Notes: generated by a model from the letters alone, not told the origin. A stretch of DNA of 64,000 nucleotides from Candidatus Poribacteria bacterium (GCA_965242965.1 OZ251518.1:2912001-2976000), one strand, 5' to 3'. Shown: positions 1,438 through 58,821, numbered from the stretch's first letter. Numbers and translations are program-made.

Positions 1438-2648
1438 TTGAGAAAGAACGACAATTACTCATAACACCGACACCCGCGTTAAGAAAAGACCGGATTTTGC
1501 GCGCAGCGCGCCGTTTACCTGTCGATAGAACACCCGTCTGGATGATGCGACAGGCAGGCCGCTCAGACCCGAGGTATCGCCGCATCCGTGAGAAGATAAA
1601 TCTGCCGCTGGAGCATCTCTTCCGCACCTGTCCCGTGCCGATGTCAGAGACGGCCGTGGAGTGGGCAGTCAAGATTTCGATGCTGCCGAAGCGCATCGGC
1701 GTAGACGCGATTATCGTCTATAAAGATATCCTCACGCCGTTGTGCCCGATGGGCGCGCATTTTCGGTTCATGCCCGGGCCTGTGCTTAGCGAACCTATCC
1801 GTAGCCGTGAGCAAGTAGAGGCACTTCAACCTCTCAATGACGCGCCCACACAGCTCGCTTTCACGGGGAAGGTTATCAGGACACTGCGAGAGACGTTGGA
1901 TGGGGAACTACCCCTCATCGGATTTGCAGGCGCGCCGATGACACTCGCCGCGTTTCTCATCGCCGGCACAAGTCCGATGAAACAGGGTTCTGAAGTGCCG
2001 CCGGCAAAATCGGTGTTTCAGAAACAATCGCGGGAGACAGGCCCCCGCACTACGGTAGAAGCTTCCGTTCCGCCGCCGGCAAAAGCGGTGTTTCAGATGC
2101 TCACCGAGGCACCGGAACTGGCACATCAACTGCTCTCCCGTTTAACCGATGCGACTATCAATTATCTGAACTACCAAATCGCCGAAGGCGTTCAGATAGT
2201 CCAGTTATTTGAGTCCATCGCCGATGTGATGCCGCGGGCGATGTATCAAGAGTTCGCGTTGCCGTATCATCAGCAAATTTTCGCCGAACTCAACCGAAGT
2301 GTCCCCGCGATTCTCTTCGCAAAAGAGTGCGCAGAACTTGATTTGATGCACCAAAGCGGTGCCGACGTGCTGAGCGTCGGGAAATGCGTGAACCTCGCAC
2401 AAGCGAGGGTTGAAACGGCAGAAAATCCTGTCGCTTTTCAGGGGAACGTTGACAACGACATCCTCCGCGATGGCACCTTCGCTGACATCACCACGGCTGT
2501 CCACGATTGCTTAAGACAGGGTGGAAAAACGGGGCACATTCTGAACCTCAGCCACGGCTTGCATAGAGACACGCCGTTTGAAAACGTCAAACATTTTGTC
2601 CAAACCGCGAAAACGTTCGGCTGGAAGCAGGCGGAGGAATCCAAATGA
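1434..2648 (+). CDS. hemE: Uroporphyrinogen decarboxylase, with an in-frame 25-codon REP-associated insertion
   Basis: PVWMMRQAGR, LIGFAGAP, QGNVD and HILNLSHG motifs. Confidence 0.95.
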   Translation: MIEKERQLLITPTPALRKDRILRAARRLPVDRTPVWMMRQAGRSDPRYRRIREKINLPLEHLFRTCPVPMSETAVEWAVKISMLPKRIGVDAIIVYKDILTPLCPMGAHFRFMPGPVLSEPIRSREQVEALQPLNDAPTQLAFTGKVIRTLRETLDGELPLIGFAGAPMTLAAFLIAGTSPMKQGSEVPPAKSVFQKQSRETGPRTTVEASVPPPAKAVFQMLTEAPELAHQLLSRLTDATINYLNYQIAEGVQIVQLFESIADVMPRAMYQEFALPYHQQIFAELNRSVPAILFAKECAELDLMHQSGADVLSVGKCVNLAQARVETAENPVAFQGNVDNDILRDGTFADITTAVHDCLRQGGKTGHILNLSHGLHRDTPFENVKHFVQTAKTFGWKQAEESK

Positions 2649-4114
2649 GAACAAAACGCGCCGGCCCGATGGAAAACCCTTACGCACCACGGCAATACGG
2701 CGAACTCGTCAAAGTAACAGAACGCGTCTATCTCTTCCGCAACGTCGTCAATTCCACGCTGATTATCGGCGATAAGGGTGTTGCGATAGTTGACACGCAG
2801 GTGAATCCCGTGATGGCGCGACGATTGCTCACAGCCGTTCGTCGGGTGACAGCGAAACCGGTCTTGTATGCGATAAATACGCACTATCACTGGGACCACA
2901 CCAACGGCAATGCGGTTTTCCACGAAGCCGGTGCGACGATTGTCGCTCGTGACATGACAAAAGATTTTATGGTATCTCGTTCGCCACGTCAAGAGGCGTT
3001 TCTTGCCTCGCGCGGTTTTAAACTAGGGGACGCACCTGTGCTTCCTATGCAAACGTTCGCGCAGGAGATGGAACTAGATTTAGGCAATCAACCGCTACAT
3101 CTCGTTCACTTGGGCAAAGCGGAAACGGACGATGCAACCGCCATCCGCATTCCGGCAGAAGAATGCATCGTATCTGGGGATACCGTCATGACAGGCAGTT
3201 TTCCGATTTTCGGACAACCTGTCATGAACGAAGGGCTCATGGCAAACCATGATTGGATCAATACCATCACGGAACTCCGCACTTACGCGCCACAACACGT
3301 CCTGCCAGGCCACGGTCCTCTAGCACACGACGCAGAGATGGAACTCCTGATTCAGATCGAGTCCTATTTCCTAACCGAAGTGCGAAAATACTTTGAAAAA
3401 GGGATGCCGTTAAACGCGTTATTAGCAGCGGTTGAGGCGAATCTTCCACCTTGGATTCGGGATATTGCCGAGGTTTGGGGCACACCGCGTTACGCGATTT
3501 TGCGCGTCTATCGCGGACTCATTGATGATGCGGAACCGGGTTGGCAGCACCTGAAACCCTCCGCTATTCCGATGGCGGATGCCGAAAGTCTTCAAGAGAA
3601 AACACGCGAATTAGCAGACTTTAACGCATATCGCGAGGCATCGGAAGAGGTGGAAGAAGGGAATGACCCCGGCTTAGCCATCGCTATTTTAAAAAACGCA
3701 ACAGAAAAATATCCGCAGCTGCCAGCGGCGTGGACAGCCTACGCCGGCGTGCTGATACGCGCATCCCGCACCGTGTCAAGTGTGCTTGAGAAAGGCGACT
3801 TCTTCGCCGAAGCAAAACAGGCACTTAATACCGCCTTGGAATTGAACGCGGATTACGCGCCAGCGTACTTGTTGCAAGGCCAGTCCGAAATCCTGTCCGC
3901 TTACCGCAACGGCGATGCACCCGATGATGGGCTTGCTTCCATTCACAAAGCGATGTCCCTCGGCATTCACGGGACACAACTTGCGCAGGCACATTTCTGC
4001 ATCGGGATGGCGTATCGCACGAACGGAGACGAAGCAGCAGCGAAAGCCGCCTTCGCAAAAGCAATCGCCGCCGATGCACGGTTCATGCCGGCACAATTAG
4101 CAAATATGGTTTAG
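2645..4114 (+). CDS. MBL-fold metallo-hydrolase fused to a C-terminal TPR-like helical region
   Basis: NTHYHWDH (HxHxDH), SGD and PGHG motifs; Ala-rich TPR-like helices at the C-terminus; overlaps the hemE stop. Confidence 0.85.
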   Translation: MRTKRAGPMENPYAPRQYGELVKVTERVYLFRNVVNSTLIIGDKGVAIVDTQVNPVMARRLLTAVRRVTAKPVLYAINTHYHWDHTNGNAVFHEAGATIVARDMTKDFMVSRSPRQEAFLASRGFKLGDAPVLPMQTFAQEMELDLGNQPLHLVHLGKAETDDATAIRIPAEECIVSGDTVMTGSFPIFGQPVMNEGLMANHDWINTITELRTYAPQHVLPGHGPLAHDAEMELLIQIESYFLTEVRKYFEKGMPLNALLAAVEANLPPWIRDIAEVWGTPRYAILRVYRGLIDDAEPGWQHLKPSAIPMADAESLQEKTRELADFNAYREASEEVEEGNDPGLAIAILKNATEKYPQLPAAWTAYAGVLIRASRTVSSVLEKGDFFAEAKQALNTALELNADYAPAYLLQGQSEILSAYRNGDAPDDGLASIHKAMSLGIHGTQLAQAHFCIGMAYRTNGDEAAAKAAFAKAIAADARFMPAQLANMV

Positions 4115-4171
4115 CACACGTAGAGCGAGGGAAACCTGTCCCTCGCTGTTATCAAACGCTAGGAAACGAAA

Positions 4172-5128: not shown

Positions 5129-5182
5129 AGCACGGACTGTCCGGACGAATTGCTTCGTCCGTTGCTACTGTTACGTATTGTT

Positions 5183-6685
5183 ATGGCTCCTAACCCCAAA
5201 CGCGCCCTTGTTATTGGCGGCGGCATTACAGGCCTCGCCGCCAGCTATCGTCTCACGCGCGAGGCAGAGAAAAGGGGTATCCCGCTCCATGTCACCCTGC
5301 TCGAAGCGAGCGACAGGATTGGCGGTGTCATCCGCACTACCCATCGCGACGGTTTCGTGATTGAGCACGGACCGGATGCCTTTATCACCACTAAACCGTG
5401 GGCAAAAGCGTTGTGCGAAGAACTCGGCATCGCCGATGAATGTATCGGCACGAATTCGACAATGCGCCGCAGCTTCGTGGTGCAAAAGGGAAAATTGCAC
5501 CCTGTCCCGGAAGGTTTTTACATGATGGCACCCGGCGCATTGCTCCCTTTTCTCAAAAGCCCTATTTTCAGTTGGCGCGGCAAACTCCGGATGGGACTTG
5601 AGCCGCTGATGCCGCGCAGCGGCGGCGATGCAGATGAATCTGTCGCCGATTTCGTGCGGCGCAGACTCGGCACCGAGGCGTTTGAACGGATGGCGCAGCC
5701 TATGATAGGTGGTATCTACACCTCTGATGCAGAACATTTGAGTCTCAAGGCGACGTTTCCGCGCTTTCTGGAGATGGAACGGGCACACGGCAGTATCATC
5801 AAGGCACTCCTAGCACAAAAGCGGCAGGCAAAAACGGCGAGCGGCACCAGCGGACCGCGGTACAGCCTCTTCCTCTCATTCGCATCCGGCATGCAGACAC
5901 TCGTTGACAAGTTACAGCAAGCGCACCTCATCGCAGCGCGAGAACCTGTCCCTCGCGAGTCACAGCAAGCACACCCCACCGTAGCGCGAGGGCCTGTCCC
6001 TCGCGAGCATTCACCTAAAGCACACCTCCATCTAAACTCTCGCGCCGAAACGCTTCAGCAGCGAAAAAATGGAACGGGATGGCAGGTATCGCTTGCAAAC
6101 GGGGAAATCCTTGAGGCGGAACTCCTCTGCGTTGCGCTGCCTGCACCACAAGCCGGCACCTTATGTGAAAACGTTTCCCCGTCCCTTGCCAAAAAACTCC
6201 AAGCGATTCCTTATGCCTCCTCCGCTACCGTCAACTTCGCGTTCCGCCGTGAGGCGGTAGCACATCCGCTGAACGGGATGGGGTTCGTCGTGCCGGCGGC
6301 TGAGGGGCTTTCGCTCATCGGGTGTTCCTTTAGTAGCGTAAAATTTGAAAACCGCGCGCCAGCGGCACACGTATTGTTGCGCGCGTTTGTCCGAAAAGAA
6401 CAAGAATCGTCCGAGAGCAGCTTGACTGCGGCGGCACTGCGAGATATTACACACCTACTCGGCATCAAAAAAGAGCCTATTTTCTCTCTTGTTAGTCAAC
6501 ATACACAAGCGATGGCGCAGTATCTGGTAGGGCATCAGGAACGCATCAGCGAAATCGAAACGCTCGCGAAAGGTTTGCCGGGGTTTGCCCTCGCCGGGAA
6601 CGCTTACCACGGCATCGGCATTCCGGATTGCATCCACAGCGGTGAGCAAGCCGCGCTCGCGCTACTCGGTGAGGAAAACTTATGA
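5183..6685 (+). CDS. hemY: HemY-type protoporphyrinogen/coproporphyrinogen oxidase, with an in-frame REP insertion
   Basis: VIGGGITGL FAD motif, EASDRIGG, IEHGPDAF, GNAYHGIGIPDCI; ATG at 5183. Confidence 0.93.
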   Translation: MAPNPKRALVIGGGITGLAASYRLTREAEKRGIPLHVTLLEASDRIGGVIRTTHRDGFVIEHGPDAFITTKPWAKALCEELGIADECIGTNSTMRRSFVVQKGKLHPVPEGFYMMAPGALLPFLKSPIFSWRGKLRMGLEPLMPRSGGDADESVADFVRRRLGTEAFERMAQPMIGGIYTSDAEHLSLKATFPRFLEMERAHGSIIKALLAQKRQAKTASGTSGPRYSLFLSFASGMQTLVDKLQQAHLIAAREPVPRESQQAHPTVARGPVPREHSPKAHLHLNSRAETLQQRKNGTGWQVSLANGEILEAELLCVALPAPQAGTLCENVSPSLAKKLQAIPYASSATVNFAFRREAVAHPLNGMGFVVPAAEGLSLIGCSFSSVKFENRAPAAHVLLRAFVRKEQESSESSLTAAALRDITHLLGIKKEPIFSLVSQHTQAMAQYLVGHQERISEIETLAKGLPGFALAGNAYHGIGIPDCIHSGEQAALALLGEENL

Positions 6686-7692: not shown

Positions 7693-7778
7693 GTTTCGGG
7701 ATGCCGTTGCGGCGCGGCAGCATCTGTAGGCGCGATGAAGGTATAAGTGCTATCGCAAAAAAAAATGAGGCCATAAAT

Positions 7779-8447
7779 GAGGGGGTTCATAAATCGATGC
7801 GTTCCCGGTAGGAGAGACCTCCTGGTCTCGATTTCTTCCCGTAGCGCGGGGCCCCTCGGAGGTTTCCATACGCGCATCCGAGCGGGTTTCCCCCGCGAAC
7901 GCCATCGTCACGATGTGTGTTCCCCATCTGTAGTTTGTGCTCGCCTGATCACAAACAGGTCAGGATCAGGCGATCCTGAACTACAGAGCCTGGCGCGAGA
8001 ACGATGGCGAGGGACAGGCCCTCGCCCTACGGTGAAGTGCCGCTTTTTTTCGTAGCGCGGGGGCCTGTCCCCCGCGAGTGCCATCGTCACGATGTGTGTT
8101 TCCCCATCTGTAGTTTGTGATCGCCTGATCACAAACAGGTCAGGATCAGGCGATCCTGAACTACAGGGTCTAGCGCGCGGACGCTGGCGAGGGGTGAAGT
8201 GCCGTTTTTTCCCGTAGCGTGGGGGCCTGTCCCCCGCGAACGTTGGATTGCACGGACGATGGCGAGGGAAACCCTCTCGGATGCGCGTATGGCATCCGAG
8301 GGCCCTCGCCCTACGATGAAGGGGGCTTTCTGCCGCCGCGGCCCCGGGCGCGCCGCCCTATTGCATCGAGACCGGGAGGTCTCTCCTACCAAGAGGGCTC
8401 GATATTCGGGGGAGATAAATGCCGAAACGGATTTATGAAACACGCTC
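7779..8447. mobile_element. Mosaic REP cassette bounded by 14-bp inverted termini (MITE/BIME-like)
   Basis: GAGGGGGTTCATA at 7779 and TATGAAACACGCTC at 8434-8447; interior made of GTAG-headed palindromes. Confidence 0.75.
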
Positions 8448-8577
8448 ACATAAATACCATCGCGAAAAAAAAGATTTTTTTAATTGACAAAATTAATGCA
8501 TTTATGATAAACTATCAATAAGGCTTAATCAAAATTGGCTCAAAGCACAAAACCTTGAGACAAATTTGAAATTTTTC

Positions 8578-8985: not shown

Positions 8986-9223
8986 AATCCTATCCTAGGA
9001 TGCCGTGCCTCTTGGGGTAGGAACGTGTAAATGGAGAGCAGCACCGAACGTTTCTGAAGCAGCTACTGCATCAGAAACCGACATTGTTGAACTCTACCGA
9101 AAATAGTTGGATAGACATGCCGCCGCGCCGCGCGTCTTTTGCTTCCCGCTCAAACGATGTCTATCCAAAGAAAACTCAGTCTGAGTCTTGCGTTTACGCA
9201 GACTTCATGAGGAGGATAAGTTA

Positions 9224-17038: not shown

Positions 17039-17123
17039 TGGTAGATGCTGAAGGACTCGCGACCGGAAGGTCGCGCCTATACAAAGGCTCGCGACCGGGA
17101 GGTCGCGCCTACAGGAGGATATA

Positions 17124-19864: not shown

Positions 19865-19980
19865 CAACGGGCACGTCCATTCAGATAGGCAAGACAGATT
19901 GCTAGCCCACCGTGAAGACGGCCTGGTGCGTCAACGTTTTCTAACCAATTGCAGCCGAAAACGCATTGCGAACTACAAAT

Positions 19981-21422: not shown

Positions 21423-22736
21423 CTAAGGACACACAAACTTCCCCAAAACCTTTCGCATGGACGCGCCAGTGGCGGCTGGAACGTTGCCTGCCTGTCCGTG
21501 TAACGCTTCGTTCGCGAGGATTGCAAAGGCTATCGCTTCTTTCGCATCGCTGTTTTCTACGGAGAGAACGATGCTATCGGGGAAGATTTGGGCTAATCGG
21601 CGCATGAGGGTTTGGTTTTGGGTGCCGCCGCCGCTGATGTAGAGTCTGTCTATTTTGCATCGAGACCGGGAGGTCTCGCCTACGGTGTTGCATCGAGACC
21701 GGGAGGTCTCTCCTACTGAAGAACATTGAGACTGGGAGGTTTCTCCTACGGTATTGCATCGAGACCGGGAGGTCTCTCCTACCGGTGTTTGTTGCGTCTG
21801 GGAGGGCTCTCCTACGGAGACGAATTGTTTGACATACTGCGCGATGGACTGCACCGTCAATTCTGTTACTGTGGCGATGCAAGCATCGTCATCTAATCCG
21901 CGCGCGAGGCATTGCGCGAGACAGGTTTGCGCGAAGGTAACGCCGAACATTTCACGTCCGGTCGTTTTCGGTGGAGGTTGCGAGAAGAAGGGGTGCGTTA
22001 ACCACTCCTCAACGAGTGGGAGATAGGGGGTGCCTTGCGCGGCACGCTGGCCGCTTGTGTCAAATCGTTCGGTGCCGCCGGTTATCTCGGAGACGACAGT
22101 GTCGATTATCATGTTGCCGGGGCCGGTATCGGAGGCGGCGATGAATTCAAGCGTGCAATTGGCGGGAAGGACGGTGATATTGGCGATGCCGCCGATGTTG
22201 AGGAGCCCGCGAGTTTCGTGTGTGTCGCGGTAGAGGAGGTAATCGGTATAGGCGACGAGGGGCGCGCCTTGTCCGCCGGCTGCCATATCTGCGACGCGAA
22301 AATCGGCGATTGTCGGAACCCCGGTCTGGTGCGCAATCACGGCGGGTTCGCCGATTTGTAAGGTTGATGGATAGGCGGCGTTGGGCAGATGGTGAATCGT
22401 CTGTCCGTGTGAACCGATGAGCGCGATGTCCCTCGCCGGGATACCGTGCTTTTTCAAGAGTGCCTTGACAGCGTCAGCAAACAAATGGCCGAGTCTGAAA
22501 TGCATCTCACATATCTTATCGACGCGCCCTGTCTCCGGATGACAGAGCGCGAGGATACTGTCCTGCACACTCGGCGGAAAAGGGACGGTGTCAAAGGCGA
22601 TGAGCGTAGCGCGCGTCGCAACGCCGTGGCCTTCAATCTCAACGACAGCCGCATCAATACCGTCTGCAGAGGTACCGGACATGAGGCCGATGACACGTTT
22701 TTTCTCTCGTTTCAGAAGTTCATAAAAAGGTTGCAT
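21423..22736 (-). CDS. anmK: Anhydro-N-acetylmuramic acid kinase, with five tandem in-frame REP units
   Basis: GLMSGTSADGID, GSHGQT, DFRVADMAAGGQGAPL, DTGPGN, PKTTGRE, KEAIAFA. Confidence 0.95.
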   Translation of the reverse strand: MQPFYELLKREKKRVIGLMSGTSADGIDAAVVEIEGHGVATRATLIAFDTVPFPPSVQDSILALCHPETGRVDKICEMHFRLGHLFADAVKALLKKHGIPARDIALIGSHGQTIHHLPNAAYPSTLQIGEPAVIAHQTGVPTIADFRVADMAAGGQGAPLVAYTDYLLYRDTHETRGLLNIGGIANITVLPANCTLEFIAASDTGPGNMIIDTVVSEITGGTERFDTSGQRAAQGTPYLPLVEEWLTHPFFSQPPPKTTGREMFGVTFAQTCLAQCLARGLDDDACIATVTELTVQSIAQYVKQFVSVGEPSQTQQTPVGETSRSRCNTVGETSQSQCSSVGETSRSRCNTVGETSRSRCKIDRLYISGGGTQNQTLMRRLAQIFPDSIVLSVENSDAKEAIAFAILANEALHGQAGNVPAATGASMRKVLGKFVCP

Positions 22737-25049: not shown

Positions 25050-25127
25050 TAAGTTTTTTCAGCGGCATCTTTTTTCTTGATTTGCAATGTGGTTATATGG
25101 TAAATTATTTATAGTCATTATTTAAAG

Positions 25128-25780
25128 GAGGGTGTTCCATATCTCGACGGATTCCCGGTAGGAGAGACCTCCCGGTCTCGATGCTGTGGTGGGCTTATTC
25201 TCTCGGGCAGGCGTGCCTGATTTTGACCTGTTCGGGCTCAGGTGTCCCGAACTACAGGGCTACATGTCTATAGCAGCACGTGTCGTGCCGTTTTCAAGGT
25301 CCGTTAGGGCCTTCATAAAAAAACGCGCGGCATGTCAAAATCTATTAAGGACCTAAAGGACCTTAGCATTCTTCGCGAGCGCGCGGGCTATAGACATTAA
25401 GGTCCTACGGACCTGAAGAGACTTTTTTCGTAGCGCGGGGGCCTGTCCCCCGCGAGCGTTGGATTGCACGGACGCTGGCGAGGGAAACCCGCTCGGATGC
25501 GCGTGTGGCATCCGAGGGCCCTCGCCCTACGATGAAAGGAAGGCGTTATTTTTATCGTAGGGCGGGGGCCTGTCCCCCGCGTTGTCCATCGTCACGATGT
25601 ATGTTACCCCATCTGTAGTTTGTGATCGCCTGATCACAAACGGGTCAGGATCGGGCGATCCTGCCCTACAGGAGGGATGCAGTCTGACACCAAAACGCAC
25701 GGCGAGGGACAGGCCCTCGCCCTACAGTGAGGGGGGGGCGTTTTTTCACCGTGACGTTGAGCGAGTTATGAAACACCCTC
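25128..25780. mobile_element. Mosaic REP cassette with inverted termini and a 24-bp flanking direct repeat
   Basis: GAGGGTGTTCCATA...TATGAAACACCCTC; ATTTATAGTCATTATTTAAAGGAG at 25107-25130 and 25781-25804. Confidence 0.85.
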
Positions 25781-25830
25781 ATTTATAGTCATTATTTAAA
25801 GGAGCATAGTCACCGACACCGCAAACATCC

Positions 25831-30047: not shown

Positions 30048-31454
30048 ATGGAAACTATCCTTATTGTTGATGACGAACGAAATACGCTGAGAATGCTGTC
30101 GCAAGGATTGCAGTTGCGCGGTTACAACGCGTTAACCGCCGCGAGTGGTGAGACGGCGTTGGCTCAATGCGCCAAAACGAATGTCGATTTGGTGTTGCTG
30201 GATATCCGCATGGAAAACGGCATGGACGGTGTCCAGACGCTCGTCAAGTTGCGTCAGCAACATCCCGAGCTCAACGTGGTGATGATGTCAGCGCAGCGCG
30301 ATATTGAAACGGCTGTGAAGACGATGGAGCTCGGCGCGAAGCGGTATATCACGAAGCCGATTAGCATTGATAAAATCCTTGCGAGTGTTGAACCGTTTCT
30401 GGAGATATCGCGCCTCTCACAAGAAAACGAGGTGCTCAAATCGAAGATTGGCCCCGATGACGAGATGGTGGGGGAGAGTCAGGCGATGGTGAATCTCCGT
30501 TCCCAGATTCGCCGTGTTGCCGCAAGCGAGCCTACCGTGCTGATTACCGGCGAAAACGGGAGCGGTAAACAGCTCGTCGCCGAGGCTATCCACGGGCAGA
30601 GCGCGCGCGCGAAGAAACCGTTCATTCCGCTGAATTGCGCCGCGATGCCCGATGAACTTGTGGAGAATGAACTCTTCGGGCACGAACGCGGCGCGTATAC
30701 CGGCGCGGACGATAGGCGGCCGGGGCGGTTTGAGTTGGCGAACGGAGGCACGCTCTTTCTCGACGAAATCGCCGATATGAGTCTCCGCGCCCAGGCGAAA
30801 GTCCTCCGCGTCCTTGAGTCCGGTGAGGTGGAACGCCTCGGCGGCCATCAGATTCGGAAGGTGGATGTGCGCATCCTCGCCGCCACAAACAAGGACTTGC
30901 CGACAGAAATTGAGAACGCGCTGTTTCGGTTGGATCTCTTCTATCGGCTCAACGTTATCCCGATTGTGGTGCCGCCGCTGCGAGAACGGCGTGAGGACAT
31001 CCCGTTACTGGTGAAATACTTCGCGGCGCGCCTCCAGTTGAACATGGGCACCTCCGCTGCAAAGGTGCTGGATCCAGCGGTTTACGCCGTGCTACAAGAG
31101 TATGACTGGCCCGGCAACATCCGCGAGCTCAAAAACATCGTCGAACGTCTCATGATTATGGTGAACCGCGCCATCGTGCTGCCGGCAGATGTGGAAGAGG
31201 TCCTCGCGCTCACGCCGCAACGCCAGAGCATTCAAGAGACAGCGACAGTTTATGCCGAGCCTTATCAACCGAATACGCCGCTGAGCACGATGGTGGATGC
31301 CGCCGAAGCGGCGTGCATTCAGCAGGCACTGGATGAACACGACTGGAACATCCGAAAGACGGCGGAAGTTCTGGGGGTGGAGCGCAGCAATTTGTATAAG
31401 AAGATGAAGAAATACAACATTGAACGTCCTGACGTTGGCGAGGTGAGTGAATAG
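30048..31454 (+). CDS. Sigma54-dependent Fis-family response regulator, NtrX/NtrC-like
   Basis: IVDD/LLDI receiver domain, GENGSGK, GAYTGA, LFLDEI, WPGNIREL, C-terminal HTH. Confidence 0.93.
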   Translation: METILIVDDERNTLRMLSQGLQLRGYNALTAASGETALAQCAKTNVDLVLLDIRMENGMDGVQTLVKLRQQHPELNVVMMSAQRDIETAVKTMELGAKRYITKPISIDKILASVEPFLEISRLSQENEVLKSKIGPDDEMVGESQAMVNLRSQIRRVAASEPTVLITGENGSGKQLVAEAIHGQSARAKKPFIPLNCAAMPDELVENELFGHERGAYTGADDRRPGRFELANGGTLFLDEIADMSLRAQAKVLRVLESGEVERLGGHQIRKVDVRILAATNKDLPTEIENALFRLDLFYRLNVIPIVVPPLRERREDIPLLVKYFAARLQLNMGTSAAKVLDPAVYAVLQEYDWPGNIRELKNIVERLMIMVNRAIVLPADVEEVLALTPQRQSIQETATVYAEPYQPNTPLSTMVDAAEAACIQQALDEHDWNIRKTAEVLGVERSNLYKKMKKYNIERPDVGEVSE

Positions 31455-31601
31455 TGAGGTTGTTGATGCTCTGTAGTTCAGGAGCACCCGCTCCCGAACG
31501 ATCAAGGCGGAGTGAACAGTGAGGTTGTTGATGCTCTGTAGTTCGGGAGCACCCGCTCCCGAACGATCAAGGCGGTGAGTGAACAGTGAGGTTGTTGATG
31601 C
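31445..31601 (+). repeat. Triplicated 25-bp gene junction interleaved with two REP hairpins
   Basis: GAGTGAAYAGTGAGGTTGTTGATGC at 31445, 31510 and 31577. Confidence 0.9.
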
Positions 31602-35014: not shown

Positions 35015-35062
35015 ATTTTTCTTGCCTTCAAAGGACTAGGTAGGAGAGACCTCCTGGTCTCA

Positions 35063-35926
35063 ATGTGGTTCGCGTATTTGCGCGAGACAACTCTTCGCGT
35101 TCTAGGTAGGAGAGCCCTCCCGGTCTCGATGTGGTTCGTATGTTTACTTCTCCTCGCGGCGTGCAATGCGCAGGATAGCGCGCAACAGCGGCGGCGAGAG
35201 TTGCAACGCGATGCCATTCAACTCCGAATGGGCCGCCAGCTCAACCCTACCGATGCGGAGGGACATATTCAGTTAGGACAGGTTTACCATCAACTCGGTG
35301 AATACGAAAACGCGCTGAACGCCTTTCAATCTGCCCTCGCGCTGGATGAACAGCACCCGCACGCCTATAACAACATGGGGCTCGTCTATCTCGATCTACG
35401 GTTCTATTCAGAGGCCATCTCTATGTTCCAAGCCGCGCTTGAAATTGCGCCGTGGAACGCCGCCTTCCTCAACAATTTGGGTTACGCGTATGACAGCGCG
35501 GACAGGTTTGAAGAAGCATTGGACGCGTATCACCGTGCGCTTGAGGCGGACGCTACTTTTGTCGATGCCCATTCCAATCTCGGCGATGCGTATCTGAATC
35601 GCGAGATGTATGCGGAGGCGATTCAGTCTTATGAGCAGGCAGTCGCGCTTGATGCAACCGATGCCACTGTCTATTTTAACCTCGGTTTCGCCTATGAGGA
35701 GAGCGGCGAATTTGCGCGCGCCATCCGGGCTTACGAGAAGGGGCTTTCCCTTGACGAGACAGAGGTAGAGGCTTACTATCGCCTTGCGCATACCTATCAG
35801 AAAAATGGTGATACGCTGATGATGCGCCGCTATTTAGACGATTTCCTGGCACGCGCCGAGGGCATCTCGCATCTTGAAGCGCAATTCAGGGCGGCACAGC
35901 AGATGAAAACCGTCGGTGACCGGTAG
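35063..35926 (+). CDS. TPR-repeat lipoprotein (start at 35063 or 35129)
   Basis: LLAAC lipobox; several canonical TPRs (AYNNMG, NNLG, SNLG, FNLG). Confidence 0.85.
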   Translation: MWFAYLRETTLRVLGRRALPVSMWFVCLLLLAACNAQDSAQQRRRELQRDAIQLRMGRQLNPTDAEGHIQLGQVYHQLGEYENALNAFQSALALDEQHPHAYNNMGLVYLDLRFYSEAISMFQAALEIAPWNAAFLNNLGYAYDSADRFEEALDAYHRALEADATFVDAHSNLGDAYLNREMYAEAIQSYEQAVALDATDATVYFNLGFAYEESGEFARAIRAYEKGLSLDETEVEAYYRLAHTYQKNGDTLMMRRYLDDFLARAEGISHLEAQFRAAQQMKTVGDR

Positions 35927-37135: not shown

Positions 37136-37436
37136 TTTTATCGCCTCAGTTGAAAAATTAACGTTGTTGTCCCGCGCGGTGTCGGGATGGGAAAGTCTAA
37201 CCTATAATACGTATCCAAGCGCGTTTTCGTTTCATTATTTGGCGAACCGTAGGAGAGACCTCCTGGTCTCGATTCCTCGCGAACGTCCGATGGCGCGCCG
37301 TAGGAGAGTCAGACCGCCTCACCTCTGTAGGTCAAGATCGACCAATCCTGACCCGTTCGGGATCAGGCGATCCCGAACTACAGAGGTGGGCCCAATGCCT
37401 TATCGAGACCAGGAGGGCTCTCCTACCGGTCCCAAA

Positions 37437-38939
37437 TTAATACGCATCCAAATCAATCTCCTCCTCACTAAACCGAAGGTGCGACTGATTGACGAGTTCA
37501 ACGATGGCATCCCACTGTGCGCGCGTCGCATCGGAAATCCCCTCGCGTTCCAGTGCCTCGGCGAATTGCGTCAGGTCCTCAATAAACCTATTTTGTAAGA
37601 AGGCGTATTCCTCAGTCTGCGCCGCGTTTTTCGGGGGTTCAAAGTTCAAGATGAGTTTCGCATAAGCCGCCAACTGCTTTGCCGCCGAGACCGCGGACTC
37701 CTTCCCCTCGCCGCTGTCAAAATAGTCGACGACCTCGTAATAGTCTTCTATCATGAGAGCCATGAGTGCCTTCAGGTCTTCGACATCTGTCTCAATCAAG
37801 AGCTCTTCGTTCTCATCATCCTCATCATCTGTTGCACTCGGGAGTTCGCTTTCACCGGTATCCGTAGGCGCGCTTTGTAAGCGCGTATCGGTTGTCTCCA
37901 ATTTCGGGGAACGCGCCCCGAGGATGGTTAACCCCACAATCGCGACAACAGAGAGACTCGTGACTGTCAGCGCGACCGGGCGTTTCCAAAGCACCTCGCG
38001 TTCACTTTTATCTAAGAAGGGTAAAAAAAGCAAGAGCAGGATGCCGACTGTCGGAATCACAAACGTGCCGACGATTTCTAGCGGGCCTTGGAAATACTTC
38101 AGCAGTTGGAACAGAAAGAGGAAATACCATTCTGGCCTCGGGTCATAGTCTGCATTCGTCGGGTCGGCGACATCTTCCAGCGGCACGGGGACAAACAGCG
38201 CGACCGATGCCAGAACCACAAACAGAATCAGCATTCCGAGAACGTCTTCAAATACCTGATGCGGATAGAACGGTTTGCCGGTTTTCATCTCCTCTGGGGT
38301 ATTTCGCGGTTCTCCTGATGAGCCGTAGAACCGGACGAAGAGGAGATGCACACCGACGAGCCCGAACGCAATCCACGGCAGCCAGATGGTGTGAATCGCG
38401 TAAAACCGCGAGAGTGTCACCGCGCCGATTTCTGAACCGCCGCGCAGCACCTTCGCAACGAAATCACCTAATACCGGTGCGGTGCTGGCGATTTCCACGC
38501 CGACGACGGTCGCCCAATACGCTTTCTCATCCCACGGCAGCAGATAGCCGGTGAAGCCGAAGCCGAGCACGACGAGGAGGAGCAGCACGCCGACTATCCA
38601 CGTCAATTCACGCGGGGATTTGTAGGAACTATAAATCACGACGCGGAGCAGGTGCAGGAAAACGACAATCACCATCGCGCTCGCGCCCCAGTGATGCAAG
38701 CCGCGCACGAACGCGCCGAACGGCACTTCTTCGCTGATATAGGTGACAGCGTTATGCGCGTGGTCTGGGGATGGCGAGTAGTAGAGTGCTAGAAACGCGC
38801 CTGTCGCCGCCTGTAGCAACAGGAGAAACATCGCCAAGCTGCCGAGCGAAAAGAGCAGATTGATGTGCTTCGGCAACGGTTTGCGCAAGTGGTTGCCGAT
38901 TTCTGTCAAGGGGAGGCGTTCTTTGAGGAACTGTTTCAT
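37437..38939 (-). CDS. Cytochrome b (b6 + subunit IV type, unsplit) with an extra C-terminal helical domain
   Basis: RGLHHWGAS, LHLLRV, GFTGYLLPWD, IHT..LP...VHL, KPFYP, PEWY. Confidence 0.93.
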   Translation of the reverse strand: MKQFLKERLPLTEIGNHLRKPLPKHINLLFSLGSLAMFLLLLQAATGAFLALYYSPSPDHAHNAVTYISEEVPFGAFVRGLHHWGASAMVIVVFLHLLRVVIYSSYKSPRELTWIVGVLLLLVVLGFGFTGYLLPWDEKAYWATVVGVEIASTAPVLGDFVAKVLRGGSEIGAVTLSRFYAIHTIWLPWIAFGLVGVHLLFVRFYGSSGEPRNTPEEMKTGKPFYPHQVFEDVLGMLILFVVLASVALFVPVPLEDVADPTNADYDPRPEWYFLFLFQLLKYFQGPLEIVGTFVIPTVGILLLLFLPFLDKSEREVLWKRPVALTVTSLSVVAIVGLTILGARSPKLETTDTRLQSAPTDTGESELPSATDDEDDENEELLIETDVEDLKALMALMIEDYYEVVDYFDSGEGKESAVSAAKQLAAYAKLILNFEPPKNAAQTEEYAFLQNRFIEDLTQFAEALEREGISDATRAQWDAIVELVNQSHLRFSEEEIDLDAY

Positions 38940-43222: not shown

Positions 43223-43828
43223 TCATTCAAAAAGTCTCCAGACTTCACACGAAAATCCCGGCACCACCTCTTCCCCTGTCAGCGTGTCTTCGCGCGTGAG
43301 CAACGTGATGTCGGTTTCGGAACGATAGATTGTCACCGTTTGCGCCACTGGTTCGACAACCCAGACGAGCTGCGTGCCGGCATCCAAGTAGTTCAGCACT
43401 TTTTGGACAATCCGAAACTGCACGTCTGATGGAGAGACTACCTCTACCGCCAGGTCTGGTGGAATTTCAAACGCCTTGCGCCGTTCTTCCGGCAGCCGCG
43501 CGTTTGAGATAAACGCGATGTCGGGGATCAGGACGCGCTCGCCGACCTGGAATCCCGTGTCAGGTAGATAGACGCGGCCCAATTGATTCTCACGGACATG
43601 CGCCTGCAAATGCCAATCAATATTGGTGCTAATATCACCGTGTTCGCCTGATGTAGGTGACATCTCTATTAATTCTCCTTTGACGTATTCATATCCCTCT
43701 AAATCGCTCGCGAGGAATTCCTCCAAGGTCATCGCTGGCAGGGAGAGGGGTTCCTGCGCGAAATCTGATTCCTCTGTTGGTGGGGGTTGGATGCCCACTT
43801 CCGCGGGGTGAACTTGCGGTATGCTCAT
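43223..43828 (-). CDS. Uma2 family (DUF820) putative endonuclease
   Basis: YEYVKGEL, PDIAF, PDLAVEVVSPSD, YLDAG..LVWVV, VPGF. Confidence 0.92.
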   Translation of the reverse strand: MSIPQVHPAEVGIQPPPTEESDFAQEPLSLPAMTLEEFLASDLEGYEYVKGELIEMSPTSGEHGDISTNIDWHLQAHVRENQLGRVYLPDTGFQVGERVLIPDIAFISNARLPEERRKAFEIPPDLAVEVVSPSDVQFRIVQKVLNYLDAGTQLVWVVEPVAQTVTIYRSETDITLLTREDTLTGEEVVPGFSCEVWRLFE

Positions 43829-43847
43829 GTTTTTCTCCTCTTAATCT

Positions 43848-44065
43848 GAGGGTGTTTCATATATCGCTCAACGTCGCGGGGGACAGGCCCCCGCGCTACG
43901 ATAAAAATCAGACGCTCCTCAGTAGGTCAGGATCGCCTGATCCTGACCCATTCGGGAGCGGGCGCTCCCGAACTACAGAGGTGGGCCCGATGCCTTCCGG
44001 TAGGAGAGACATTGAGACCGGGAGGGCGCGCCAACCGGGAAGGCATCAATTTATGAAACACCCTC
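43848..44065. mobile_element. Short REP cassette with perfect 14-bp inverted termini and an 8-bp direct repeat
   Basis: CTTAATCT|GAGGGTGTTTCATA ... TATGAAACACCCTC|CTTAATCT. Confidence 0.85.
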
Positions 44066-44066
44066 C

Positions 44067-45440
44067 TTAATCTATCCACTCCATCGTTTGCCGGAGTTTC
44101 TCTTTGGCTTTCGCGTGGTCCCGGCGTGCCTGATAGAAGACGCGTTGCGCCTCGGTGAACTGCGCCTGCGCTTGGAATGCATCGTCAAATGTCAACCCGC
44201 GATAATTTGGCAATTCTACCGTGACTTCATCCAGCACGCGCTCAATTGCACGGAGCCGTTGCTCATAGATTTCCACGCGCCGCTGCTCAATCTCAATTCG
44301 TTCTTGCGCATTGGCGACAGCACGGTAATCGCGGCGGACTGCGACGCGGAGGAGGTCGCGCTTTTCGGCGGCATCCAAGTGGAGTCGCTCAAGTTCGGCG
44401 AGTTCTGCCGAGCGCAGGTTCTCTGTCTGTTTCCCATCGAAGAGCGGCAGGTTGAGATTGAACTGCAGTGCCCATCCCTCTTCGGCGCGGGGCGTGCGTT
44501 CAAAAATGCTCGGCACATCGCGTTCTCTGTCCAAAAGCACCGGCGTGTAGCGTGCGGTTGCATCCCACGTCCGTTTGCCGGGGTGCTGCTCCAATAACAC
44601 GCGCAGGTCGCGATAGCGTGCCTCGGCTGACACTTCCGGGAACCGGTTCCAGAGTGTTTCGCCGACGATGCGTTCTTGACGCGCGATGTCCCCCGCCAGG
44701 TCTCGCAGAGTGAGGCTATTTTTCAATGCCAGTTCGACAGCGGCTTCCAGCGTGATGTCATCCGCCGGCAAGGGTTGCGCGAGAGTGACGTTTGTGAGCG
44801 GGTCCAACCCGGTGAGCCGGATGAGTTCCGCCGTGTCCACGTCTAAGCGCCGCTGGAGTTCGTTCAAGGCGAGTTGCTGCTCCGATAATTCGAGTTCGGT
44901 ATTGAGGCGGCTCAGGAACAGCACGCGCTTTTTTTCGTGCTTAATTTGCGTGCCTTTGAGTTTTTTGACGAGTTCCACCTCAATCGCGCGGCGTTGGGCA
45001 ATCTCTTCCTGCGTCAAAATCATATCGTGCCAGAGGTTGCGGAGTTGGGAGATAACGTCTTTTTTAACGCGTTCCAACGCAATCGTCGATTTGCGGACGG
45101 CTTCCTGCGCCGTGTCTAACCCTTCTGGCACTTCACCGAATTGTGCGAGCAGCACGCTCAATTGGGCGCGGGAGAGGTAGTCCCACTCGTCGCTCGCGCC
45201 GTCCTTTTGGCGTTGATATTCGCCGGTGACACCTACCTGTGGCAGATAGATGGCGCGTGAGATGCGGTGATGTGCCTCGGCACGTGCCACGACTTTCTCG
45301 GCTTTTTTGACGGCCGCGTTGTTTTTCAAGGTGAGTTCGATGGCGCGTGCCGGCGTGAGGATGACGTGGCGTTGCGCGGGGACAGCACGGACGGCGAGTA
45401 AGAGTAAGCAGAGTGTCAGTGCTGTCAGTCGTGTGTTCAT
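44067..45440 (-). CDS. TolC family outer-membrane efflux protein
   Basis: Signal peptide, two OEP halves (AIELTLKNN...YLPQV; AVELALKNS...FPEV), LNLPLFDG. Confidence 0.85.
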   Translation of the reverse strand: MNTRLTALTLCLLLLAVRAVPAQRHVILTPARAIELTLKNNAAVKKAEKVVARAEAHHRISRAIYLPQVGVTGEYQRQKDGASDEWDYLSRAQLSVLLAQFGEVPEGLDTAQEAVRKSTIALERVKKDVISQLRNLWHDMILTQEEIAQRRAIEVELVKKLKGTQIKHEKKRVLFLSRLNTELELSEQQLALNELQRRLDVDTAELIRLTGLDPLTNVTLAQPLPADDITLEAAVELALKNSLTLRDLAGDIARQERIVGETLWNRFPEVSAEARYRDLRVLLEQHPGKRTWDATARYTPVLLDRERDVPSIFERTPRAEEGWALQFNLNLPLFDGKQTENLRSAELAELERLHLDAAEKRDLLRVAVRRDYRAVANAQERIEIEQRRVEIYEQRLRAIERVLDEVTVELPNYRGLTFDDAFQAQAQFTEAQRVFYQARRDHAKAKEKLRQTMEWID

Positions 45441-52348: not shown

Positions 52349-52840
52349 AGCAGGATTTTCAAGATTTACAAGATTAGCACGATGAGTCCGTAGCGCGGGG
52401 GCCTGTCCCCCGCGATCGCACGCGTGCCCCAGAGACTGTAGTTCGGGCTCGCCTAATTCCGAACGGGTCAAGAGCACGGCCTCCTCACTACCGTAGCGCG
52501 GGGGCCTGTCCCCCGCGATCGTTCGCGTGCCCCAGAGCACGGCGAGGGACAGGCCCTCGCCCTACGGTGAAACGGAGACGGCCTTGCATACCGTAGCGCG
52601 GGGGCCTGTCCCCCGCGATCGCTCGACCTGTGCGAAAACCGCACGCCGGCCAAGGCCGTTTCCCGTTCCGATCGAGGCACGGCGAGGGACAGGCCCTCGC
52701 CCTACGGTGAAACGGAGACGGCCTTGCATACCGTAGCGCGGGGGCCCTCGGATGCCACCCGCGCATCCGAGCGGGTTTCCCCCGCGATCTCCCGCGTGCC
52801 CGATGGCCTGGCGAAGGACAGGTCCTCGCCCTACGGGTAT
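52349..52840. repeat. BIME-like array of alternating GTAG palindromes
   Basis: Repeated GTAGCGCGGGGGCCTGTCCCCCGCG / GGCGAGGGACAGGCCCTCGCCCTAC units. Confidence 0.88.
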
Positions 52841-52866
52841 ATGTGACGCATCAACCACATTAGGTG

Positions 52867-56182: not shown

Positions 56183-56324
56183 TTTTTCGTATTTCCTTCG
56201 GTGGTTTGACGTTTCTTCCATGCTAGGCATGCCAGTAGGAGAGACCTCCTGGTCTCGATGTAGTCTTGCCTCCTGGTCTCGATGCAGTCTTGCTCCCATC
56301 GGACACTTTGCGAACGCCGAAACA

Positions 56325-57806: not shown

Positions 57807-58271
57807 GATGGATTCCTCCGTGCCGGTAGGCGCAATTGAAAACCGATCGCGCCTATCGGGTTCGTTCTGCGTAAATCCTCATCGAATGTTCGGTTTACTT
57901 GAATAGAGTCAGTTGAACCGAAAAAGGATAGTGAAGAAAAATAGAGTTTGGACAATTTCAGGGGTAACCTCTCTGCGCGGCAGAAGTTGCCGCCTTTCTG
58001 CAACAGAAATAGCCCGCGACGCGCGCGGGAGGGAAGAGATAACGCCGATGCAGCATCGATGCTGCCGAGTTTTTGAAGGTTAACACTTGTAGGGTAAGGG
58101 GGGGGTCTTCGGGGAGTAGGAAATCCGTGATGGCGCGACGAAGGATCTTGACGCGCACGAGAGGTGCGGCATCACGCCGGATTCGTTTTTGGCAATAGCA
58201 TTGAGTCGTCGCAGATTCACGGTGTTTTCCCCTATTCAGTAAGGTGTGCGGATGTGGTTTTTCTCAACATT

Positions 58272-58821
58272 TAAACCAAATTTTATTTTAACTTAATTGC
58301 GAATTTTTGTCAAGTTTTTTTCGTGAAGTTCAGAGCGATTCAGTTTTCCTCGGTAGGAGAGACCTCTTGGTCTTGACTCGCCTCGGTAGGAGAGCCCGCT
58401 AAACCAAGTTTTATTTTATCTTAATTGTCGGATTTTTGTCAAGTTTTTTCGTGAAGTCTCGATTTCCGGTGGGAGAGCCCTCCCGGTCTCGATGCAATTC
58501 AGTGAACGTGTTTCATAACTTGCTCAACGTCGCAACTGATGAGGGATTTCTGCTGGCTTTAGGTCTGTAGGACCTGAAGAGCCGTTTTTTCAAAAGCGAT
58601 TTCGCCGCTGCGAATGAACACCGCCGTTTTTCCGTAGCGCGGGGGCCTGTCCCCCGCGATCTTCCGGTAGATCGCAGCATGGCGAGGGACAGGCCCTCGC
58701 CCTACGGTAAGCGAGGCCGTTCTGGATACCGTAGCGCGGGGCCTGTCCCCCGCGACGTTGAGCGATTTATGAAACTCCCTCATTTTATATTAATTCCTGA
58801 TTTTTGTCAAGTTTTTCCTGA
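58272..58821 (-). promoter_or_regulatory. Three homologous copies of a sigma70 promoter, separated by REP units
   Basis: TTGACA-17/18/17-TAAAAT; -35 boxes at 58308-58313, 58437-58442 and 58805-58810. Confidence 0.75.
58504..58781. mobile_element. REP cassette with degenerate inverted termini
   Basis: GAACGTGTTTCATA ... TATGAAACTCCCTC. Confidence 0.7.

Follow-up and report, generated by a model that had tools for sequence, protein, structure and literature searches.

How do REP sequences enter a host genome, and does their entry duplicate the DNA that receives them? A 64-kb window of Candidatus Poribacteria DNA (64,000 nt, the whole stretch analysed) raises this question, as host sequence recurs there on both sides of GTAG-headed palindromes. 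The least costly evidence on how REPs spread comes from natural footprints of insertion, and young, polymorphic REP sites are unusually numerous in this lineage. Repeat-family DNA makes up 4801 of the 64,000 nt (~7.5%), forming a BIME-like mosaic to which several families of GTAG-headed REPs contribute, with pattern counts of 44 (F1), 25 (F2), 10 (F3a), 14 (F3b) and 2 (F5). A scan for short GC-rich palindromes returned 131 with a GTAG head, some of which are chance matches. The repeats are high-copy, short, GC-rich palindromes with an unpaired GTAG head, as in REPs and REPINs. In the module map, F3-type REPs (F3a/F3b) form inverted doublets (REPINs) at 14 places, tail to tail and with the arms 1 nt apart, and several REP types alternate in orientation, with recurrent linker motifs between them; blocks of 124-160 nt (families D9 and D18) are common to different clusters. 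The mosaic clusters sit just past stop codons and between genes.

GTAG-headed palindromic REPs have been linked to RAYTs (PMC2817692, PMC3733652), and REPs inside genes have been reported for other species (PMC3733652). The GTAG head, the GC-rich palindrome, several families per genome, inverted doublets and mosaics are all shared with known GTAG REP/REPIN/BIME-RAYT systems. However, the mosaics here have an inverted terminal motif that is not palindromic, together with duplicated flanks, the REP density is ~1.5 per kb, and none of the 51 ORFs of the window matches RAYT/Y1_Tnp or another transposase family. The literature searched has no mention of Poribacteria together with REP terms.

A preliminary description of this DNA had listed six repeats around REPs, and all six were found (Table 1; sites are named by their position in kb). 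We compared the flanks of 27 repeat clusters, using 702 mismatched left/right pairs as controls. Direct repeats scoring at least 20 (range 20-25) flank 4 of the 27 clusters, and none of the 702 controls reaches 12. REP DNA lies between the copies in each of the five long, local non-REP direct repeats (random placement, ~1e-4; 7e-4 without the 62.45-kb pair), and direct repeats of at least 20 nt were not found in the REP-free DNA of the window outside two repeat-domain genes. Duplicated host DNA is tied to REPs, as had been claimed, and the link of the listed repeats to REP DNA is not due to chance. The stronger claim that duplication regularly accompanies REP insertion did not survive, with only four long cases among the 27 clusters. 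In 21 of the 27, flank duplication is not above chance, though many REPs are near-consensus, suggesting that duplication is at most facultative or that nested insertions hide it. Uniqueness of the duplicated segments refers to the 64-kb window, and the length distribution, with n=4 long cases, is anecdotal.

Table 1. Positions of repeats, REP units and mosaics in the window
Feature	Position	Strand	Remarks
hemE duplication, left copy	1997..2022	+	coding, PPAKSVFQ
F1 GTAG REP unit, in frame in hemE	2023..2059	-	palindrome 2030-2053
hemE duplication, right (ancestral) copy	2072..2097	+	PPAKAVFQ
hemY-like gene, in-frame 48-nt tandem duplication	5921..6009	+	20-nt flank + REP
Target duplication CATAAAT, left copy	7772..7778	+	abuts left terminal motif
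REP mosaic, 670 nt	7779..8448		degenerate left motif; right motif 8434-8447
Target duplication CATAAAT, right copy	8449..8455	+	single gATAAATg in L001
REP unit, 32-nt tandem duplication	17056..17113	-	1 unit in L001, 2 in window
anmK, five in-frame 33-nt F2 REP units	21652..21822	-	copy number varies among relatives
25.1-kb duplication, left copy	25107..25130	+	perfect 21-24 nt
REP mosaic, 653 nt	25128..25780		inverted terminal motifs 25128-25141 and 25767-25780
25.1-kb duplication, right copy	25781..25804	+	27 nt upstream of ATG at 25831
A-REP-A-REP-A array	31442..31601	+	period 65-67 nt
66-nt-period duplication	35036..35145	+	REP + ~17 nt 3' flank; unrepeated spacer between units
14-nt repeat TAATACGYATCCAA around REP cluster	37205..37451	+	37205-37218 and 37438-37451, 13/14 identical
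8-bp duplication CTTAATCT, left copy	43840..43847	+	zero gap to element
REP mosaic, 218 nt	43848..44065		inverted terminal motifs
8-bp duplication CTTAATCT, right copy	44066..44073	+	zero gap to element
Two tandem units, ~128 nt each	58272..58500	+	A (58 nt) + linker + F2 REP
Motif-bounded mosaic	58504..58781		between unit 2 and third A copy
Third, partial A copy	58782..58816	+	abuts right terminal motif
20-nt pair around two F1 REPs	62453..62576	+	62453-62472 and 62557-62576, 20/20

The orthologue set comprised 35 fetched loci, all from Poribacteria, with L001 as the one close relative; close relatives exist at 92-94% protein identity. The top matches of HemE and of a giant protein likewise belong to Poribacteria. 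Synteny of all 35 loci ends near window position 20.7 kb, so the sites at 25.1, 31.5, 43.8, 58.3 and 62.45 kb lie outside the comparison, and empty or less-occupied orthologous sites number only two (hemE and 7.77 kb). L001 and the window have REPs in common at orthologous positions.

The hemE duplication is real, in frame and lineage-specific. The copies agree at 25 of 26 positions, and the match reaches ~28-31 nt if a 3-nt indel is allowed. The palindrome is followed by GGTAGAA, 11 nt and the right copy, which stands 12 nt away from the REP unit, and the insert breaks the Pfam match to URO-D in two. In L001, as in 11 orthologous loci free of REPs, the right-copy segment is the sole copy; the region spans 99 nt in these 11 loci, 135 nt in L001 and 171 nt in the window, where two copies surround the F1 REP. 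The L001 site has a different REP (F5), which indicates more than one event there. The same insert occurs in two proteins whose contigs are independent, P0001 (a 23-sequence cluster) and P0003, and it is therefore not an assembly slip of the window. The left copy of P0001 reads VPRPVKAVFQ, and P0003 has two REP-plus-flank units in the order REP-A-REP-A, A being the flank segment. Insertion with long target duplication is known for kb-sized restriction-modification units, with duplications of >30 to ~400 bp (Furuta 2010, PMC2853133). The hemE case resembles it in that a unique segment is doubled around the insert and single-copy without it, but the inserts here are non-coding repeats of 37-670 nt; against the >30-bp length, hemE has ~28-31 nt, single-copy in orthologues, and the 25.1-kb site 21-24 nt.

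At 7.77 kb, the mosaic is absent from the orthologous L001 site, where a single gATAAATg stands in place of the CATAAAT found on both sides in the window; ~6-7 bp are newly duplicated. The longer, decayed repeat at this site (8450-8475, partner 7743-7768) had been taken as a product of the insertion, but it is older than the mosaic: both copies are present in the empty site of L001, at 9218-9241 and 9262-9284. This empty site refutes the listed example by the refuting condition set in the preliminary description itself.

A feature missed in the preliminary description is an outward-facing inverted terminal motif, TTATGAAACACCCTC, which bounds REP mosaics like the ends of a MITE. The consensus of its ends, eight left and eight right, is cGAgTTATGAAACACCCTC, with the element boundary before A.tTAA, and the first 10 bases outside the motif ends are 77% A+T, compared with 45% for the window. 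The inverted motif is only ~15-17 nt long, and the two ends differ further inside. Six mosaics have both motifs. At 25.1 kb, the flank copies are identical at 24 of 24 positions without a further copy in the window; the last 3 nt (GAG) of the left copy overlap the start of the left motif, and on either side the flank copy meets the insert without a gap, as at 31.5 kb. At 43.8 kb, the 8-bp copies touch both terminal motifs, and the right one holds the TAA stop (minus strand) of an OEP gene (44067-45440). This pair is present as described, but it is not significant alone, 88 of the 702 controls reaching a score of 8; it is counted solely for its position, directly against both ends of the element with no gap. 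Among the five mosaics with both motifs and testable flanks, that at 41169-41686 shows no duplication, and that at 60321-60816 only a doubtful 5/8 flank match. Abutting repeats (~6-7, 8 and 21-24 bp) occur in 3 of 5-6 complete elements, the shortest being the one seen as single-copy in L001; across four motif-bounded mosaics the lengths are ~6-7, 8, 21-24 and possibly at least 35 nt, from few copies.

Terminal inverted motifs and AT-rich targets, at about two to four examples, point to a MITE-like, TIR-plus-TSD transposition and not to HUH/RAYT. The statement that DDE duplications are short and fixed needs qualifying, given IS1630 (19-26 bp) and IS1634/IS1549 (8-514 bp) as reported exceptions (PMC2853133, PMC2266710). 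The mosaics resemble MITEs, IS1630 and IS1634 in their terminal inverted motif, AT-rich target and abutting repeats of ~6-8, 8 and 21-24 (possibly at least 35) bp, a likeness seen in 3-4 informative elements. They differ in that their cargo is REP palindromes and in that the ORF lists of the window and L001 contain neither a transposase nor a parent IS sharing the terminal motif. We think it more likely that a DDE-type transposase acted in trans on the motif-bounded mosaics than that a RAYT did.

Two sites form longer arrays. The three flank copies reported earlier at 31.5 kb were confirmed (31442-31469, 31508-31534, 31574-31601) and alternate with F3c REPs at 31473-31499 and 31538-31566. Each copy holds the stop codon of a gene for a sigma-54 activator together with the RBS and ATG of a pseudopilin gene, and this gene junction is triplicated. 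At 58.3 kb, 58272-58329 and 58400-58457 are 91.5% identical over 59 aligned columns, with a partial third copy at 58782-58816 as noted before; unit 1 has an extra truncated REP. The junction of the third copy does not abut on its left side (gap of 10 nt), and no matching flank was found at the left terminal motif at 58504. Each A copy contains TTGACA-N17/18-TAAAAT on the minus strand, a near-consensus promoter-like site that thereby occurs three times upstream of an ABC-transporter operon. In the alignments, the repeats of both sites run on into the REP.

Head-to-tail units of flank plus REP(IN) were found at 31.5 and 58.3 kb, in the hemY-like gene (one unit in L001, two in the window), at 17.06 and 35.0 kb, and in L001, which has its own 132-nt and 93-nt tandem repeats. 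In anmK, proteins carry from 0 to ~6 REP-coded 11-aa units across 14 aligned sequences, and at 56.2 kb a 24-nt unit whose start lies in the REP loop is tandemly duplicated. Tandem REPIN clusters that include flanks were described in P. fluorescens SBW25 (Bertels and Rainey 2011, PMC3116915), with 5' flank, REP(IN) and short 3' flank head to tail and sometimes an unrepeated spacer; the units at 35.0 kb, hemY, 58.3 kb and L001 21056/21188 are of this kind. However, a lone element between two flank copies, as at 25.1 kb and hemE, falls outside that description, as do arrays with an additional flank copy at the end, and several of the present arrays lie in frame within genes.

The reading we favour, with a probability of roughly 45%, is that insertion is coupled to a target duplication of variable length (~6-35 bp) and that slippage then amplifies flank-plus-REP units. 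The flank duplications appear to be partly footprints of insertion and partly products of later copying in place, not the work of one new mechanism. The repeats, their exact abutment, the single-copy state of two sites in orthologues and the differences in copy number between relatives are directly observed. We infer that duplication and insertion were one event, in which an enzyme would join a motif-bounded mosaic or a single REP unit at staggered breaks, preferably in AT-rich, TTAA-like DNA, and filling of the gaps would leave direct repeats. Such footprints may measure ~6-8 bp (7.77 and 43.8 kb), 21-24 bp (25.1 kb), ~28-33 bp (hemE and 31.5 kb) and possibly at least 35 bp (58.3 kb). Once direct repeats and hairpins were present, slipped or unequal replication or recombination could amplify the flank-plus-REP tandems of 31.5 kb (three copies), 58.3 kb, hemY, 17.06 kb, 35.0 kb, anmK and the P0003 hemE.

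It is possible, although we consider it rather doubtful, that insertion duplicates nothing or little and that all long duplications arose afterwards, by slippage or unequal sister exchange between hairpins and direct repeats, with A-REP-A left after loss of a REP. Tandem flank-plus-REP duplications are indeed frequent and recent (hemY, 17.06 kb, 35.0 kb, 56.2 kb, anmK, 58.3 kb and twice in L001), the order in the P0003 hemE and the 21 of 27 clusters lacking flank duplication agree with it, and REPIN excision has been reported as well. However, simple tandem duplication yields A-R-A-R and not A-R-A. The arrays at 31.5 and 58.3 kb end in an extra flank copy (A-R-A-R-A) and therefore need a pre-existing A-R-A. 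At 25.1 kb, the 653-nt mosaic is single and perfect copies touch both its motifs, so that slippage would need ~674 nt to be duplicated and the second mosaic to be exactly deleted.

The mechanism proposed in the preliminary description appears improbable: a RAYT (HUH Y1 nuclease) would nick the target, the 3' end would prime REP copying, and a switch back upstream would copy the target twice. GTAG-headed palindromes of the RAYT-linked kind (PMC2817692, PMC3733652), a REP dissemination mechanism described as still open (PMC8266576), varying duplication lengths and the ~28-33-nt duplications around single REP units without terminal motifs (hemE, 31.5 kb) are consistent with it. At 31.5 kb, the host sequence immediately preceding the first flank copy also resembles the REP 3' arm and tail and could have guided the switch back, but the alignment is weak and gapped, and no such resemblance was seen at 25.1 or 58.3 kb. 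Against this mechanism stand also the 51 RAYT-free ORFs of the window, the REPs without duplication, which are the majority, and about two to four examples flanking mosaics with inverted terminal motifs in AT-rich targets, from which strand-specific HUH insertion differs. REPs are thought to be handled by Y1 HUH enzymes related to IS200/IS605 (PMC2817692, PMC8266576), elements which PMC2817692 describes as having neither terminal inverted repeats nor a larger target duplication. Subterminal hairpins are shared with this "peel and paste" system, but IS200/IS605-like insertion was rejected in view of the inverted motifs at 8+8 ends and the abutting repeats at 7.77, 25.1 and 43.8 kb.

Chance likeness between AT-rich intergenic sequences, or misassembly of a region dense in repeats, might explain the 8-bp and 7-bp pairs by score alone and would suit a 7743/8450 pair unrelated to insertion, but for the long repeats this reading is largely refuted and very improbable, with four sites far above every control, the hemE arrangement recurring in independent proteins and REPs at orthologous sites in L001.

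We tentatively propose that in this lineage GTAG REP units and mosaics enter sites by a reaction that duplicates a variable stretch of target, from ~6-8 to ~35 bp and, in the two cases of a single REP, ~28-33 bp. If this is right, REP spread here would lie off the duplication-free IS200/IS605 route assumed for RAYT-driven REPs, and these loci would be the first natural record of REP mosaic integration, including in frame in housekeeping enzymes. Effects on the host extend beyond the gene junction and the putative promoter copies: HemE, the HemY-like oxidase and AnmK carry REP-encoded peptide inserts, with copy numbers that differ between relatives.

Two further pairs were found in the window. 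The 62453/62557 pair was rejected as a host duplication, as it belongs to a dispersed (GAAATCNTG)n module. The TAATACGYATCCAA repeat does not abut its REP cluster and has a score of 11, which is reached by 2 of the 702 controls; its right copy holds the stop codon of cytochrome b.

The window has a G+C content of 55%, and 4801 of its 64,000 nt are repeat-family DNA. REPs, short palindromes headed by GTAG, matched the family patterns F1 (GTAGCGCGGGGGCCTGTCCCCCGC type) 44 times, F2 (GTAGGAGAGACCTCCTGGTCTC) 25 times, F3a 10 times, F3b 14 times and F5 twice, and they form about 27 clusters, each a mosaic built from recurrent modules. A further recurrent module inside the mosaics consists of AAGGTCCTACGGACCT/CTATAGACATTAAGGTCC-type hairpins without a GTAG head. 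Candidatus Poribacteria gave the best matches of both the HemE-like ORF and the 2598-aa surface protein, as well as all 35 loci fetched with the latter. Neither a RAYT (the HUH Y1 nuclease linked to REPs) nor any other transposase was found among the 51 ORFs of the window, and a search of the window against Rfam at gathering thresholds returned no matches.

Each of the host repeats that the preliminary description had listed around REPs was present where it had been reported. When high-copy repeats were masked and direct repeats no more than 1.5 kb apart were listed, all local pairs of at least 20 nt bracketed or contained REP DNA, two genes with internal domain repeats (encoding the Ig-like giant protein and an LRR protein) being set aside. 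REP-free DNA outside these two genes had no such pair. Under random placement, P was about 1e-4 for five of five long pairs bracketing REP DNA and 7e-4 for four. Comparison of the 80 nt to the left with the 80 nt to the right of the 27 clusters, with module boundaries set by hand, gave scores of 20–25 at four clusters (hemE, 25.1k, 31.5k and 58.3k, the sites being named by window position), against a maximum of 11 among 702 mismatched left/right pairs. However, 21 of the 27 clusters showed no flank repeat above chance. Flank duplication beside REP DNA is therefore genuine but exceptional, with four long cases, and not the general companion of REP insertion that had been proposed. Two other pairs were rejected as host duplications: the 42-nt pair at 41639/43094, both members being copies of one end module, and an additional 20/20 pair found here at 62.45k, which encloses two F1 REPs and is part of a dispersed GAAATCNTG 9-mer module occurring in four other places.

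Many clusters are closed by an outward-facing motif, TTATGAAACACCCTC, which the preliminary description had missed; its left-side form is the complement, GAGGGTGTTTCATA. Eight left and eight right ends yielded the consensus cGAgTTATGAAACACCCTC, followed on the outside by A.tTAA, and the first ten bases outside the motif are 77% A+T, compared with 45% for the window. Three alternative modules, an F1 REP, an F2 REP or another hairpin, occur inside the motif, which is thus an end piece common to the mosaics. Its interpretation as a conserved host signal was rejected because 11 REP-free Poribacteria loci gave only chance matches or an unrelated terminator hairpin, which stands at one orthologous place.

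Features of the window and of the close relative's contig L001 (A, duplicated host flank segment; coordinates refer to the window unless L001 is named)
Feature	Coordinates	Description
43.8k site		218-nt mosaic, terminal motif at both ends, between two CTTAATCT copies, gap zero
25.1k site		653-nt mosaic, both motifs, flanked by perfect ATTTATAGTCATTATTTAAAG copies
7.77k site		670-nt mosaic, both motifs (left degenerate), CATAAAT on either side
31.5k site		A-REP-A-REP-A array, period 65-67 nt, A = 28 nt
58.3k site		two ~128-nt units by alignment, each 58-nt A + linker + F2 REP; extra truncated REP in unit 1
35.0k site		REP + ~17 nt flank, 66-nt period, spacer unrepeated
56.2k site		24-nt unit, start in REP loop
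Sigma-70-like promoter matches	58285-58313, 58413-58442, 58782-58810	minus strand, one per A copy
Host likeness to REP at 31.5k	31425-31445; 31490-31510	upstream coding DNA; REP 3' arm and tail
HemE insert	hemE 1434-2648	25 aa; four states among relatives
HemY-like insert	gene 5150-6685	2 x 16 aa
AnmK insert	anmK 21423-22736	5 x 11 aa (VGETSRSRCNT)
REPs at one hemE codon position	1960-2130; L001 3361-3495	F1; F5
hemE stop region	2575-2665; L001 3940-4080	not alike
Non-GTAG hairpin module	20790-20960, 25260-25410, 58555-58580, 60560-60700	inside mosaics
GAAATCNTG module	21384-21404, 43141-43225, 52349-52383, 62453-62472, 62557-62585	2-4 tandem 9-mers
Tandem duplication in empty site	L001 9228-9262	15 nt, GCGAAAAAATGGTGG x2
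Surface-protein repeat indels	9650-9688, 10091-10426; L001 14092-14118	in-frame repeat units

Relatives were fetched by a genome-contig scan with the giant protein as the query and 10-kb flanks, reaching window position 1 to ~27k, and comprised 35 Poribacteria loci. L001, a contig of a public Poribacteria MAG, is the sole close locus; its nucleotide identity is ~86% across window 1-20674, and it has REP families in common with the window. Synteny is lost in all 35 loci past the CDP-alcohol phosphatidyltransferase gene (19966-20604), at ~20.7k, and the orthologue comparison is thus limited to sites within the first 20.7 kb and to one close relative. Genes between lamG and the CDP-alcohol phosphatidyltransferase gene, both included, stand in one order in the Poribacteria loci spanning that stretch; in the window, this conserved order ends at the REP cluster at ~20.6-21.4k. 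No fetched locus runs on into anmK and beyond, which suggests that this cluster marks a rearrangement breakpoint.

At three sites, a single motif-bounded mosaic stands between two host copies. The 43.8k mosaic lies between a TAA stop and the RBS of the next gene. The copies at 25.1k have three more bases in common (GAG), the left GAG also being the first bases of the motif; the duplicated sequence forms a single pair, unique in the window, and a promoter scan of this site found no sigma-70-like match. That the 21-nt repeat here arose from two nearby 8-bp insertions followed by recombination was rejected by reasoning only: further copies of the element would then be expected beyond the repeats, where there are none. 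The 7.77k mosaic is missing from L001, whose empty site already has the decayed 23-26-nt repeat twice but ATAAAT just once. The decayed pair at 7743/8450, read in the preliminary description as an insertion product, hence drops out by that description's own reasoning. By comparison with L001, the CATAAAT pair itself appears to be a genuine target duplication, a short one, beside a motif-bounded mosaic. The L001 empty site also contains a short tandem duplication with no REP there.

In hemE, an F1 REP unit is enclosed by two copies of a 26-nt coding sequence, and the total insert of 75 nt keeps the reading frame. The length across the site is 99 nt in 11 REP-free loci, 135 nt in L001 and 171 nt in the window; the duplicated segment occurs once in L001, beside an in-frame F5 REP, and twice in the window, around the F1 REP. 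Among related HemE proteins, P0001 is arranged like the window, but its left copy is fuller (VPRPVKAVFQ), implying an original duplication of ~31 nt. REP-plus-flank units number two in P0003, whereas P0002, P0004 and P0005 agree with L001. P0001 and P0003, like P0121-P0125, come from the closest relatives, at 92-94% protein identity. Judging from these states, the duplication in hemE is real and lineage-specific, and it is linked to the F1 REP's arrival. Several events have affected the site, where 12 nt separate the right copy from the REP unit. The presence of differing families at one codon position, F5 (GGTAGGCGCGGTTTGTAATCCCGC) in L001 and F1 in the window, suggests an insertion hot spot or replacement within the gene. 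The hemE stop also differs: L001 ends with ...KTFR*, followed by 51 extra nt including a small hairpin, and the window gene is 8 codons longer, overlapping the next gene at an ATGA. In L001, the extra DNA is bordered by a weak 18-nt repeat (14/18) around a 36-nt insert, which was discounted as too near chance level.

The remaining two long cases are arrays. At 31.5k, A contains the stop codon that ends a sigma-54 activator gene, together with the RBS and ATG that begin a pseudopilin gene. At 58.3k, the two units are followed by a motif-bounded mosaic, and a third partial A abuts the right terminal motif of this mosaic. Each A copy at 58.3k carries TTGACA-N17/18-TAAAAT, a near-consensus sigma-70-like match, on the minus strand (11/12 consensus positions), facing and upstream of an ABC-transporter operon starting at 57806; 50 shuffles of the region gave a mean of 0.6 matches.

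Simple tandem duplication yields A-R-A-R (R being a REP or mosaic), not a single element with copies abutting both ends, as at 25.1k, 43.8k and 7.77k, nor an array closing with an extra flank copy, as at 31.5k and 58.3k. These arrangements make duplication at the time of insertion the most economical reading. Entry of the element would have produced the flank copies at these sites in the form of target duplications that vary in length, and the new direct repeats would afterwards have misaligned, amplifying flank-plus-REP units. We give insertion-coupled duplication with later slippage a tentative probability of about 0.45. For the motif-bounded mosaics, the inverted terminal motif, AT-rich target and abutting repeats together bear the hallmarks of MITE-like transposition. 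An origin wholly after insertion, by duplication and loss, which is at odds with the same A-R-A sites and array ends, seems less likely. We consider still less probable the nick-primed template switch by a RAYT put forward in the preliminary description. Both single-REP cases lack the terminal motif and have duplications of ~28-31 nt (hemE) and 28-33 nt (31.5k); for these two, a copy-choice route akin to that mechanism is possible. A point in its favor is that the host coding DNA immediately before the first A copy at 31.5k, CGTCCTGACGTTGGCGAG, weakly resembles by alignment the REP 3' arm and tail, CTCCCGAACGATCAAGGCG, a likeness that may reflect either chance or homology guiding a template switch. 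Chance or artefact as the source of the duplications is hardly credible beside flank scores that none of the control pairs reached.

Tandem duplication around REPs is pervasive here. The hemY-like gene has two in-frame tandem 48-nt units, each made up of a REP and 20 nt of flank, and the 17.06k site has two tandem 32-nt units; at either place L001 has one. L001 for its part has two tandem repeats of flank plus REP, one of 132 nt and one of 93 nt. In anmK, five 33-nt REP units stand in frame in the window, and REP-coded units range from 0 to ~6 among 14 aligned proteins. The flank-plus-REP repeats of the window and L001 match the ordered REPIN clusters of P. fluorescens SBW25, which the relevant passages of Bertels and Rainey (PMC3116915) describe as tandem repeats 'including the flanking sequences' and read as a sign of a second cluster-forming mechanism. 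GTAG REPs occur in frame as peptide inserts in three housekeeping enzymes (HemE, HemY-like and AnmK), and their copy number or type varies among relatives.

Long target duplications are known for other elements. The sections on these elements in PMC2853133 and PMC2266710 give 19-26 bp for IS1630 and 8-514 bp for IS1634/IS1549, with no mechanistic model, and the former also reports long duplications for restriction-modification units as 'insertion with long target duplication'. GTAG REPs, mosaics, REPs within genes and the RAYT linkage are established in the pertinent parts of PMC2817692 and PMC3733652; IS200/IS605 elements are described in the former as being without terminal inverted repeats or larger target duplications. 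How REPs disseminate is stated to be unresolved in a passage of PMC8266576. In the literature searched, which does not extend to subscription journals and so lacks the older papers on BIME polymorphism in E. coli, neither target duplications where REPs or BIMEs have inserted nor REPs in Poribacteria turned up. Searching the text of Di Nocera et al. 2013 gave no mention of duplication, direct repeats or empty sites. Given this coverage, the absence of earlier reports is provisional.

Two further features were observed. Between the window and L001, the gene for the 2598-aa Ig-like surface protein, in which a T9SS sorting domain was matched, shows in-frame indels of repeat units, 39, 336 and 27 nt long. 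The GAAATCNTG module often has CTCNTCAT after it and neighbours REP clusters and gene ends; it looks like an array of putative protein-binding sites.
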